From contig CM000150.2 in assembly GCA_000004695.1 (NCBI GenBank), positions 2,944,001 to 3,008,000 of the forward strand: a stretch of 64,000 nucleotides of DNA. Reading direction: 5' to 3'. Positions 39,180 to 49,015 of the stretch are shown here, piece by piece. The position numbers and the translations under genes are program-made. Each line of letters opens with the position of its first letter. Positions within the stretch are counted from its first letter, which is position 1. The notes beneath the pieces were generated by a model. It was not told the origin of the DNA. It saw only the letters and a list, made by a program, of their open reading frames with translations, and ran no database searches. Origin of the DNA: Dictyostelium discoideum. Lineage: Eukaryota.

Positions 39180-43875
<4,696 letters not shown>

Positions 43876-44149: not shown

Positions 44150-44932
44150 ATGGTAATTTCTTCAGATCAAGAACAACTTTTATCTTCAACAGAAGATCAG
44201 CTATTACAATACCAACAACAACATCAACAATCACAATTATCAGAACAACCACAACATATAATACCAATTGGACCACCACAAAATGTATTACCGATGGGAA
44301 AATATAAAATTCCAGAAACTTTTTCATGTAATATATTTACAGGTTATGAAAACCCAACAACTTGTCCAACTGAAATATCAAACTATTTATCATTTGATGA
44401 ATATAATTCATTGGTTATTTCATTAAATAATAAAATGGATACCTTCCATAGAAACTATTGGATCTCCTTTATTATTTATATTATTGTTGTTTTATTGTTT
44501 TACTGTTCATTTTTTATTATATATTCAGATAAAATATTTTTAATACTTGGTTTATTACTTACTGCTATAATATCAATAGCTTTCTTTTTAAATTATTTAC
44601 AAAAAAGGGTAAGTTAAGAAATCATTTTTAAAATAATATAAAAATTAAAAAAAAAAAAAAAGTGAGGAAAAATTTATTTATAAATATTCTAAAAATAAAA
44701 ATAGAATTTTGAAAATATTAAAAAGATTTGTAAAGAATATACTGTTCAATTTTCCAATAGAAATATTAAAGTTGAAACTACTAAAAAACAATTTAAGGTC
44801 AGTGTACATATCAATTATCCACAAAATACTTTTGTTTTATCACAACAATATCTCCAACCACAATTTCAACAATTTCAACCAATTTATCGCCAAAACATTT
44901 GTCAACCACAACAACAACAGCAACAACAATAA
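44150..44932 (+). CDS. Small single-pass membrane protein with a Q/P-rich C-terminal tail. Paralog A. join(44150..44608, 44705..44932), about 229 aa.
   Basis: Exon 1: MVISSDQEQLLSS...IPIGPPQNVLPMGKYKIPETFSCNIFTGYENPTTCPTEISNYLSFDEYNSLVISLNNKMDTFHRNYW, then a hydrophobic segment, then ...YLQKR|GTAAGT. Exon 2 follows a 96-nt intron ending ATAG: NFENIKKICKEYTVQFSNRNIKVETTKKQFKVSVHINYPQNTFVLSQQYLQPQFQQFQPIYRQNICQPQQQQQQQ*. The track ORF 44709..44936 is the wrong frame. Confidence 0.55.
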
Positions 44933-45309
44933 ATAAAGTTCCTTTTATTCAAAATTAATAACTTAGTTTCCAAATTTAATACATTGAAAATTTCTGTTTA
45001 AAAAAATAAATAAAAAAAACAAGAAAAAAAAAAAATATTTAAGGAAAAAGAAAAAAAAAATAATTGGAATGATCTTTGGAAATTATTTTTTTTTATTTTT
45101 TTTTTAATTTTTTTATTTTTTTTTCTTCTTTTTTTAAGCACCAATTTTTGATCAAATTTTTTTTTTGTTTTTTTTTTATTTTAATTTTATTTTTTGTTTT
45201 TTTTTTTTCTCAAAAAACCACCAATTTTTTAATTTATTTTTTTTGTTTTTTTTTTTTTTTCACACATTATTTTTTTTTTTTATTATTTCTCTCTCATAAA
45301 ATAACAATA

Positions 45310-46097
45310 ATGGGAATTTCTTTAGATCAAGAACAACTTTTATCTTCAGCAGAACAACAACAACAACAATCGCAATTATCAGAACAACCACAATATGTAA
45401 TACCAATTGGACCACAAAATGTATTACCAATGGGAAAATTTAAAATCCCAGAAACTTTTTCATGTAATAGATTTACAGGTTATGAAAAACCAACAACATG
45501 TCCAACTGAATTATCAAACTATTTATCATTTGATGATTATAAGTCATTGGTTAATTCATTAAATAATAAAATGGATTCCTTCCATAGACTCTATTGGTGT
45601 TCCATTATCGTCTATATGGTTCTTATTTTCTCTTGTTCATTTTCTGGTGTTTTTATAGGTGTGATATTTTTAGTGGTTAGTATAATACTTATTGTTGCCG
45701 TCTTTCTTTGCTTTTTATTTTATTTACAAAATAGAGTAAGTTAAGGAATCATATAAAAAATTTAAAAAAAAATAAAAAAGGTGAGAAAGTTTTTTTATTA
45801 ACATTCTAAAAATAAAAATAGATTTTTGAAAATATTAAAAAGATTTGTAATGAATATAATGTTCAATTTTCCAATAGAAATATAAAATTTGAGGTCGCTA
45901 AAAAACAATTTAAGATCAGTGTACATATCAATTATCCACAAAATATTTCCTTTGTTTTACCACAATATCTCCAACCACAATTCCAACCACAATTTCAACC
46001 ACAATTTCAACCACAATTTCAACCACAATTCCAACCACAATTTCAACAACAACCAATTTACCATCAAAACATTTATCAACCACAACAACAACAATAA
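45310..46097 (+). CDS. Small single-pass membrane protein with a (QPQF)n tail. Paralog B, a tandem duplicate of the gene at 44150-44932. join(45310..45735, 45822..46097), about 233 aa.
   Basis: Exon 1: MGISLDQEQLLSSAEQQQQQSQLSEQPQYVIPIGPQNVLPMGKFKIPETFSCNRFTGYEKPTTCPTELSNYLSFDDYKSLVNSLNNKMDSFHRLYW, then a TM segment, then ...YLQNR|GTAAGT. Exon 2: IFENIKKICNEYNVQFSNRNIKFEVAKKQFKISVHINYPQNISFVLPQYLQPQFQPQFQPQFQPQFQPQFQPQFQQQPIYHQNIYQPQQQQ*. Same gene structure and intron position as paralog A. Confidence 0.55.
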
Positions 46098-46410: not shown

Positions 46411-49015
46411 TTATACGTCTGGATGATCACGTTTGTATTCAGCATAAAGGGTATCAATAATGGTTTGATATCTTTCTTTGAGTTGTGGTCTCTTTGGTTT
46501 GAATGATGGAGTTAATAAATTGTTTTCCTCAGTGAATGGTTCATGTTCTACGTAGATATGTTTTAATTTTTCAAAACCATGTAATTTGGCTTCGGCAGCG
46601 CAAGCATCGAAACTTGATAAAATTTCTTTGTAGAGTTCTTTTGATTTTGCGAGGGTTGCATGGTTTGAAACATCAAGTTCTGGATATTTGGAAGCGAATA
46701 ATTTTTGGACAACTTCAAAATCTGGTACGACAACACCAACCAAGAAACTATTTAATGAATCACCATAGACAAATACTTGAGAGGCAAATGGTGAACGAAC
46801 GAAAACAGATTCCAAATATTCGGCGGCAACGTATTCACCTTGAGATAATTTGAAGATATTTTTCTTACGATCAATGATTGAGAGGGTACCATTTTCATTC
46901 CAACGACCAATATCACCAGTATGGAACCAACCATCTTCTTTGAGATCTTCTTTGGTCTTTTCTGGATCCTTAAAGTAACCTTTGAAAACGTTGAAACCAC
47001 GAATACAAACCTCACCTCTTGGACATGGTTTATCAGTAGAGAAATAGTTCATCTCTGGAACGTCGATTAATTTCATTTCACAGGCACTGAGTGGTGGACC
47101 AACATGACCTACATTGTTATCTTCTGGATAGGCAACAGAGGCACCACCTACATTTTCAGAGAGACCATAACCAGAGACGACTGGACAACAGAAACAAGCA
47201 CGTAAGAATTCGGCTAATTTTGGATCCAATGGAGCGGAACCGGAAAGGATGAATTTAACACGACCACCAAGTCTATCCTTTGTTTTTGAGAAAACCAATT
47301 TATCCCAAATTGGAGTGGTTGAACCAAGTCTTAATGCAGATTGTTTAGAGTTGAGACCCCAATTGAAGAGGAATTTCTTTAACCAACTATCATTGTTGAC
47401 AGTGAACCAAAGTTTGTCGTGAAGACGTTGCCATACTCTTGGGGCACCACATAAAAAGGTTGGACGTAAAACTTGGATATCGTTGAATAACTCTGGAATT
47501 AAACCAGAGAAGAAACCAATTTGACCACCAACATAACACATCAATGAAACGACGGCACGTTCAAATGAGTGAGCCAATGGGAGGTATGACATATGAACAT
47601 CCTCTGGAATTACACCTGCTGGTGAAAAGTTGGCACCTGCAACTTCACTGACCATATTTGTATGAGTTAACATTACACCCTTTGGATTACCAGTTGAACC
47701 AGAGGTGTAAAGTAATGTACATAAATCTTCTGGTGATGGGACTTCATGTTGGGCTGGATTTTGTTCACCCAATTTTTCAAAATCTGATAAGAGGTAAAGT
47801 TTAACGTTTTCATTATCCTTGAATTTATCTAATGTTGCTTGTGGTAATGGATCATAACTGACAATTGTTTTAATGGTTGTACCTGGCATTGAAAGAATCT
47901 TTTCAACATTTTTACCTTCACATAAAAGTACTGAAATCTCTGAATGATTAACAACATATTCAATTGCATTGGCACCTAATGTTGCATATAATGCAACTGG
48001 TACAAGTGAATGATTCATTGCTGCCATATCTGATAAAACCCATTCTGGTCTATTAATTGAAAAAATACCAATTCTATCACCCTTTTAATTTTTATTTATC
48101 ATTTATTATTTATAAATTATTAAAGTAATAAGTTAAATGTTAATAATAAATAAAATTAAAATAAATAAAATTAATTAATTGAAAAAAGATTTAGATATTT
48201 ATAATTTGATTAAAAAAAAAAAAAAAAAAACACAAAATGGTGTGGGGTTGGTGCACAAAATTTTTTTTTTTTTTTAAAATCAATTAACTTTTTATCAAAT
48301 TTTAAAAAAAATATCTTGGGGATTTTCATCGTTTCACAAAAAAAAAAAAAAATTTTAAAAAAAAAACCCTTTTTTCCCCGATATTTGATTTAGTTGCGGT
48401 TTTTTTTTTTGAGTGATTAACAAAGTGTTTTGAAAAAAAAAAAAAAAAGAGAAAAGTGTTTTGAAAAAAGAAAATAAAAAAAAAAAGAAAAGAAAAAAAT
48501 AAAAAAAAATAAAAAAATTATTTGTGAAAACCAAATATTAAAATATTTCTTCTTTACCTTATTTAAACCTAATTGAACTAAAGCTGAACCAATGTTATTT
48601 GCTCTAATGCATGCTTGTTTATAAGAAATCCATTTGTAATCACCTCTTTTGCCATCTGCTAATAATTCACGAATACCTAAAAAGTTTGAATCTGAATCTT
48701 TATTTATTCTTTAAATTTATTTATTATTGAAAAATATTAGAATTTAATAATCATAAAAACTTTATTTTATATTATTATTATTATTATTTATTTATTTTTT
48801 TTTTTATTTTTTTAAAAATACATACCTATAAACATCATACAAGGTAAAGGTTTTACCGTCTGGTGAATTTGTTAATTTTGGGAATTTAGTGTTTCTTCTT
48901 GGTCTAGTTTCGCCTGGTATAACTTCACTACCGTCTACTTCAACACTTTGAAGACGGATCTAAAAATAAATTCAAACAATTGTGTAATTATAGTAATAAA
49001 GTTAGTATAAATAAT

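Follow-up and report, generated by a model that had tools for sequence, protein, structure and literature searches.

Accessory subunits form a poorly understood layer of control over the DHHC palmitoyltransferases. Human GOLGA7 (GCP16; 8HF3 chain B, 9OA6 chain B) is the accessory subunit of ZDHHC9, ZDHHC14, ZDHHC18, ZDHHC5 and ZDHHC8, and yeast Erf4 (8HFC chain B) is accessory to the Ras palmitoyltransferase Erf2. Both stabilise S-acyltransferases of the DHHC9/Erf2 type, with their membrane helices touching TM2 and TM3 of the enzyme and the loop that follows the first strand touching its zinc fingers. GOLGA7 has no transmembrane (TM) helix and is held by two short inserted helices together with the palmitoylated residues Cys69 and Cys72; its own palmitoylation is needed for both membrane anchoring and stability. 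Erf4 has additional segments at its N-terminus as well as one more pair of strands, and lacks a TM hairpin. A cryo-EM study describes GCP16 and Erf4 as built from a sheet of three strands, two helices in the cytosol and two that insert into the membrane, without a transmembrane helix (10.1101/2022.12.12.520165). In GOLGA7, the RDYS motif after the first strand is required for binding of ZDHHC5 and ZDHHC9, with Arg16 forming a salt bridge and Tyr18 a stacking contact (PMC12528901). CHIC1 and CHIC2, which also belong to the Pfam Erf4 family, are anchored by a palmitoylated cysteine cluster, and CHIC2 is reported to tether the ubiquitin ligase CHIP at membranes (10.1101/2023.07.17.549407).

We analysed a window of 64,000 nucleotides from Dictyostelium discoideum (contig CM000150.2, positions 2,944,001 to 3,008,000 of the forward strand), in which two adjacent genes encode divergent relatives of these proteins. 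In the reading that we consider probable, the two are Erf4/GOLGA7 members with a membrane-spanning hairpin that would act, by inference, as accessory subunits of DHHC S-acyltransferases. Public records label gene 1 'hypothetical' or 'transmembrane protein', and a literature search by gene identifiers returned nothing. The features of the pair, in positions of the window, are as follows:

44150-44608, forward strand: exon 1 of gene 1, codons 1-153; encodes a Q-rich N-terminus, the first half of the GOLGA7/Erf4-like domain and the predicted TM hairpin; the spliced product matches DDB_G0270554
44165-44182, forward strand: N-terminal D-Q-E-Q-L-L of gene 1, residues 6-11, matching the acidic dileucine pattern [DE]xxxL[LI]
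44291-44458, forward strand: N-block of gene 1, residues 48-103; three short strands, a CP-TE-I motif and the soluble start of helix 1
44459-44599, forward strand: predicted TM hairpin of gene 1, W104-L150; helix, S-D-K turn, helix, from hydropathy and AlphaFold2
44609-44704, forward strand: intron of gene 1, 96 nt, GTAAGT...AATAG, phase 0
44705-44932, forward strand: exon 2 of gene 1 including the stop codon; C-terminal half of the domain (helix and two strands, ending in INYP) and Q/P-rich tail
45310-45735, forward strand: exon 1 of gene 2, codons 1-142
45595-45726, forward strand: predicted TM hairpin of gene 2, 44 hydrophobic residues; turn around S-G-V-F-I-G without a charged residue
45736-45821, forward strand: intron of gene 2, 86 nt, GTAAGT...AATAG, phase 0, inserted at the codon that corresponds to the gene 1 site
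45822-46097, forward strand: exon 2 of gene 2 including the stop codon; C-block and (QPQF)n tail
45972-46052, forward strand: 12-bp tandem repeat CAACCACAATTT, 6.8 copies, encoding (QPQF)n in the tail of gene 2

An initial annotation, made from the sequence alone, had described these genes as tandem paralogues with a shared architecture and an identical intron position. Spliced models bore out the coordinates and the paralogy. The gene 1 product (228 aa) is 100% identical to DDB_G0270554 of D. discoideum AX4, and gene 2 is its downstream paralogue (233 aa); the two proteins are 73% identical, and a DNA alignment of 861 bp that takes in the intron and ~100 bp upstream shows 80.6% identity. Each gene has its phase-0 intron at an identical codon, following ...YLQ[KN]R, and the conserved block quoted in the annotation is found in both genes. 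The tail of gene 2 contains the 6.8 copies of the 12-bp repeat; that of gene 1 has only QPQFQQFQP.

The membrane segment called for a different description from the one first given, a single TM helix in a type-Ib-like topology, which would put the termini on opposite sides. The hydrophobic run extends over 47 residues in gene 1 (W104-L150, with the polar S-D-K turn) and 44 in gene 2, and was modelled by AlphaFold2 as two antiparallel helices (residues 82-124 and 129-168) with about 21-22 hydrophobic residues each. Basic residues flank this hairpin on both sides (K/H/R before it, K/R/K/K after it), and the turn is short. Since the segment is a hairpin rather than a single TM helix, the N-terminal block and the exon-2 block would lie on the same side of the membrane. 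By the positive-inside rule, according to which basic flanks mark the cytosolic side, that side is probably the cytosol. The intron, which had been placed after the TM helix, does occupy the same site in both genes, but this site follows the second helix of the hairpin. Similarly, the Cys-containing block had been taken for a small folded domain, and a folded domain is present, but the family does not conserve its cysteines as a disulfide pair: C72 occupies the aromatic position of a family [FY]P motif, and C60 is missing in several paralogues. In the membrane-associated segment, where GOLGA7 is S-acylated at Cys69 and Cys72, a further cysteine (C119 in gene 1) lies inside the first helix; every gene-1 and gene-2 orthologue has it, but it is not kept throughout the family.

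The annotation had also found no family for the pair. Profile and fold comparisons place it in the Erf4/GOLGA7 superfamily. In a Pfam scan, the Erf4 family (PF10256, 'Golgin subfamily A member 7/ERF4'; 116 model positions, gathering threshold 29.3 bits) was the top or only consistent family in 8/10 family members, with a best E-value of 1.6e-6 and top scores (27.6-28.5 bits) just below the cut-off. The paralogues scored 20-28.5 bits, and the intact gene 1 and gene 2 sequences scored 12.7 and 18.2 bits, respectively, both below 29.3. These matches were always collinear and lay on the N-terminal half of the model; a precomputed PF10256 match is on record for the Polysphondylium violaceum homologue. 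Against solved structures, the family profile found GOLGA7 best (chains 8hf3_B and 9oa6_B; E = 0.0065); a narrower profile, built from the close orthologues only, had no relative in the PDB.

Because long insertions break profile alignments, the turn/loop and the second helix were excised before rescoring. The GOLGA7 E-value improved to 6.1e-5, with an alignment that crosses the hydrophobic segment into the next helix, and the PF10256 match now covered positions 8-111 of the 116 in the profile. After excision, three paralogues scored above 29.3 bits (34.8, 32.8 and 30.2); gene 2, at 26.0 bits, and gene 1, at 17.6 bits, stayed below it. When the C-block was deleted or reversed as a control, all scores fell by 1.3-9.4 bits and the alignment ended at about position 62-70. 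The C-block alone, which is too short to score, gave no Erf4 match against Pfam. In hhalign comparisons, the vertebrate GOLGA7 alignment was matched over 107 columns (E = 6.8e-5, probability 63%), and the whole series of comparisons between the family and GOLGA7 gave E-values of 4e-5 to 1e-4 at probabilities of only 57-70%. The conserved core ([FY]P.EL ... E[FY] ... N) is matched collinearly. We conclude that the pair belongs to the Erf4/GOLGA7 superfamily. Near the counterparts of GOLGA7 Tyr76 and Tyr86, the HMMER and hhalign registers are ~4 residues off our hand alignment. A word-index search started from GOLGA7 gave vertebrate GOLGA7 proteins throughout its best 120 matches. Scattered hydrophobic or short sub-threshold Pfam matches (DUF1828, DUF4191, Wzy_C, DUF2207_C and others) were not family-wide and were discarded.

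The predicted fold agrees with this placement. An AlphaFold2 model built from 12 dictyostelid sequences without templates had block-mean pLDDT values of 81-95 over its core (residues 51-190), but ~66 at the hairpin turn; with only 4 sequences the pLDDT was 51 and the model was unusable. The modelled elements comprise strands at 49-53, 56-59 and 62-66, helices at 82-124 and 129-168, and strands at 175-181 and 184-192, and the N-block and the exon-2 block pack into one domain in the model. Their order matches that described for GCP16, namely strand, helix, two membrane helices, helix and two strands (10.1101/2022.12.12.520165), so that the GOLGA7/Erf4-like arrangement is present in the AlphaFold2 model. 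A Foldseek search of this model against the PDB gave no significant match. The N-block of gene 1 (residues 48-103) aligns to residues ~9-60 of GOLGA7, and the two share, in addition to the order of elements, a core of GK.[x]I..., an aromatic residue at the Tyr18 position, [FY]P.EL (represented in gene 1 by its CP-TE-I motif) and (E)[FY]...N, as well as a conserved Asn in the helix that follows the membrane segment. Sequence identity is only ~13%. The pair differs from GOLGA7 in its two helices of ~21-22 hydrophobic residues, which amount to ~30 extra hydrophobic residues in total, in the long Q/P-rich tails added at both ends, and in the replacement of RDYS by ETFS (E56-T57-F58-S59 in genes 1 and 2), which keeps the aromatic residue and the Ser and loses the Arg and the Asp.

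An exhaustive HMMER search with an orthologue profile against 1.84 billion representatives (E <= 1e-3) returned 8 further proteins, 7 of which are dictyostelid; the eighth, from Taraxacum, is an LRR resistance protein and was judged spurious. The dictyostelid relatives came from D. discoideum strains, D. firmibasis, D. citrinum, Cavenderia fasciculata (DFA_00838) and P. violaceum (CYY_010537), and included a second paralogue type of AX4, DDB_G0267894. As far as found among these 1.84 billion representatives, the family is confined to dictyostelids, and at least four paralogue types occur in the D. discoideum group. All seven relatives have the same architecture, in which a Q/P-rich N-terminus precedes an N-block ('[FY]P.EL..Ls.eEY..iv..lN'), a hydrophobic hairpin of about 45-50 residues, a C-block ('N.q[fy].nRNI..E....f.v..hI.YP') and a Q/P-rich tail. 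A phase-0 intron interrupts the C. fasciculata homologue at the corresponding site, and the P. violaceum homologue is intronless. Querying a word index with the alignment of the family brought back few of its members. The first homology search gave no gene-2-type protein, since such proteins are missing from the collection: the exact gene 2 protein was not found among its 15 billion proteins, and neither were the spliced second-gene models from two other genomes. As these models equal the called products in length (245 and 238 aa), the absence of gene 2 from the collection says little.

Those two genomes, D. discoideum GCA_054859355.1 and D. cf. discoideum GCA_054859235.1, carry the pair intact, syntenic and with its intron kept (second gene at L001 7124-7971 and L002 7152-7944). 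The divergence between the paralogues is mosaic. Over codons 1-103 (44150-44458 compared with 45310-45594) the nucleotide distance was ~0.07 and the synonymous divergence 0.04-0.10, as against 0.30-0.35 and 0.30-0.42, respectively, in the hairpin (44459-44599 compared with 45595-45726), where dS was about 0.37 and dN 0.45. This pattern suggests gene conversion or strong constraint of the 5' part, with the hairpins kept distinct, perhaps by selection. Overall dN/dS was rather high (0.23-0.93; 0.6-0.8 between the copies) and about 1.1 for the gene 2 hairpin among orthologues. The C-block gave dN/dS values of 0.27-0.41 in both lineages, which points to constraint on both copies, and the gene 2 tail gave 0.08.

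Given that GOLGA7 and Erf4 stabilise enzymes of the DHHC9/Erf2 type, we propose that the pair are membrane-integrated accessory subunits of this kind. The N-block (three short strands and a helix) and the exon-2 block (a helix and two strands) would form one cytosolic domain, and the short, leaflet-dipping helices of GOLGA7 and Erf4 would here have been lengthened to ~21-22 hydrophobic residues each, giving a hairpin that could span the membrane. Such a protein would not need its own palmitoylation for anchoring. Each paralogue may then serve a DHHC protein S-acyltransferase, its hairpin packing on the transmembrane helices of the enzyme, by analogy with GOLGA7 and Erf4, and its cytosolic domain bracing the DHHC zinc-finger region and the C-terminal segment, in a role that would be stabilising and not catalytic. 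The mode of packing could differ from that of GOLGA7 and Erf4, which are described as having no transmembrane helix. As the cytosolic domains are near-identical and the hairpins very different, the two paralogues may serve different partner enzymes or different membranes. If this proposal is right, a set of orphan dictyostelid 'transmembrane proteins' gains a family and a testable function, and a naturally occurring form held in the membrane by a TM hairpin would uncouple the anchoring role from the regulatory one, in a genetically tractable organism suited to asking how accessory subunits choose and stabilise enzymes. The practical importance is moderate, since neither the fold nor its general role is new.

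The main competing explanation keeps the GOLGA7/Erf4 fold and gives up the DHHC role, making the pair CHIC-like, membrane-anchored cytosolic adaptors that would take part in endomembrane sorting through their dileucine signal. The loss of the Arg and Asp of the RDYS contact motif (PMC12528901) speaks for it, as do the lineage-specific expansion of the family and the [DE]xxxL[LI] motifs kept at the termini across paralogues. The family profile also aligns to the core motif of human CHIC2 (hhalign E = 1.6e-4), CHIC proteins and the dictyostelid family both having 'FP..L.g.v.peEf...i..vN' followed by a hydrophobic membrane-anchoring segment, and CHIC2 is reported as a membrane-anchored partner of CHIP (10.1101/2023.07.17.549407). 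However, only 32 columns align to CHIC2, which has no solved structure to compare, as against 52-107 columns at better scores for GOLGA7; the dictyostelid anchor is an aliphatic and aromatic hairpin with no cysteine cluster resembling the CHIC motif; and the aromatic residue at the position of GOLGA7 Tyr18 is kept. We therefore regard an adaptor independent of DHHC enzymes as possible, with the evidence leaning against it. It is also conceivable, though unlikely, that the hairpin does not cross the bilayer and forms a monotopic wedge in the cytosolic leaflet, possibly targeting the proteins to the ER or to lipid droplets. Monotopic insertion is the ancestral state of GOLGA7 and Erf4, and the S-G-V-F-I-G turn of gene 2 lacks any charged or strongly polar residue. 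Against this, the hydrophobic stretch of each helix suffices to span a bilayer, and the turns of gene 1 and of most paralogues are polar or charged (SDK, DNSM, TQSEK, DNVNK) and would be costly to bury.

Two further explanations were weighed. That one copy is a decaying, functionless duplicate would account for the dN/dS of 0.6-0.8 between the copies, for the value of about 1.1 in the gene 2 hairpin and for the missing gene 2 product in the protein collection; it is made very improbable by reading frames, splice sites and intron phases that are intact for both genes in three genomes and by the low dN/dS of the C-block in both lineages and of the gene 2 tail, and the collection lacks the second-gene models of the other two genomes as well. 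Least credible of all is the earlier reading of single-pass, type-Ib-like proteins whose Cys-containing domain, be it an ectodomain or cytosolic, is novel and belongs to no known family. Although no Pfam family reaches its cut-off with gene 1 or gene 2, and the public labels of gene 1 are consistent with such a protein, the 44-47-residue run is modelled as two helices, the exon-2 block and the N-block make up one domain, the cysteines vary across the family, and profile and fold both match Erf4/GOLGA7.

Building on the preferred reading, of membrane-integrated DHHC accessory subunits, a broader scenario can be drawn that we offer as speculation and think rather improbable as a whole. Dictyostelids would have replaced the peripheral, palmitoylation-dependent GOLGA7/Erf4 proteins with integral-membrane versions, of at least four types, in which interchangeable hairpins choose the DHHC enzyme or the organelle; gene conversion would keep the cytosolic domain of the pair nearly uniform and selection would keep the hairpins apart. 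If true, this would amount to modular control of protein S-acylation, with the same regulator fitted to different membrane plugs.

The terminal motifs are of the dileucine type. D-Q-E-Q-L-L at residues 6-11 is invariant in 6/6 gene-1 and gene-2 orthologues (44165-44182 and 45325-45342). Of the seven other homologues, five have [DE]xxxL[LI] at the C-terminus, the P. violaceum protein has D-H-P-L-L close to it, and the C. fasciculata protein lacks a motif of this kind. The motif thus stands at the N-terminus in the pair and at the extreme C-terminus (D/E-x-x-P-L-L/I) in most of the others, having apparently switched ends. Judged from the motifs themselves, they would fit cytosolic termini and adaptor-dependent sorting. 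Both genes also contain an internal duplication of 24-27 bp (44248-44299 and 45387-45435), in which PQ[HY][IV]IPIG is followed by P(P)QNVLPMG. The duplicated eight-residue motif lies directly before the folded domain in the pair and is present as a single copy in the other paralogues.

The surroundings of the pair offered several further observations. Upstream of gene 2, a T-rich intergenic stretch (45086-45291) contains an 80-bp unit repeated 2.6 times, with a repeated 'CACCAATTTTT' element, which could be a duplicated promoter element. The upstream neighbour (39180-43875, forward strand) is Pre-SET/SET histone-methyltransferase-like and contains a very long poly-Asn tract; the open reading frames at 39180-42050 and 42082-43875 probably form one gene, as products of 1521 and 1614 aa are called there in the other genomes. 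Directly downstream, on the reverse strand (46411-48027), lies a gene for an AMP-binding enzyme of the acyl-CoA-synthetase type (Pfam PF00501, E = 6e-70). Acyl-CoA is the co-substrate of DHHC enzymes, and the adjacency is probably a coincidence; the PF00501 gene adjoins the pair in both other genomes too.
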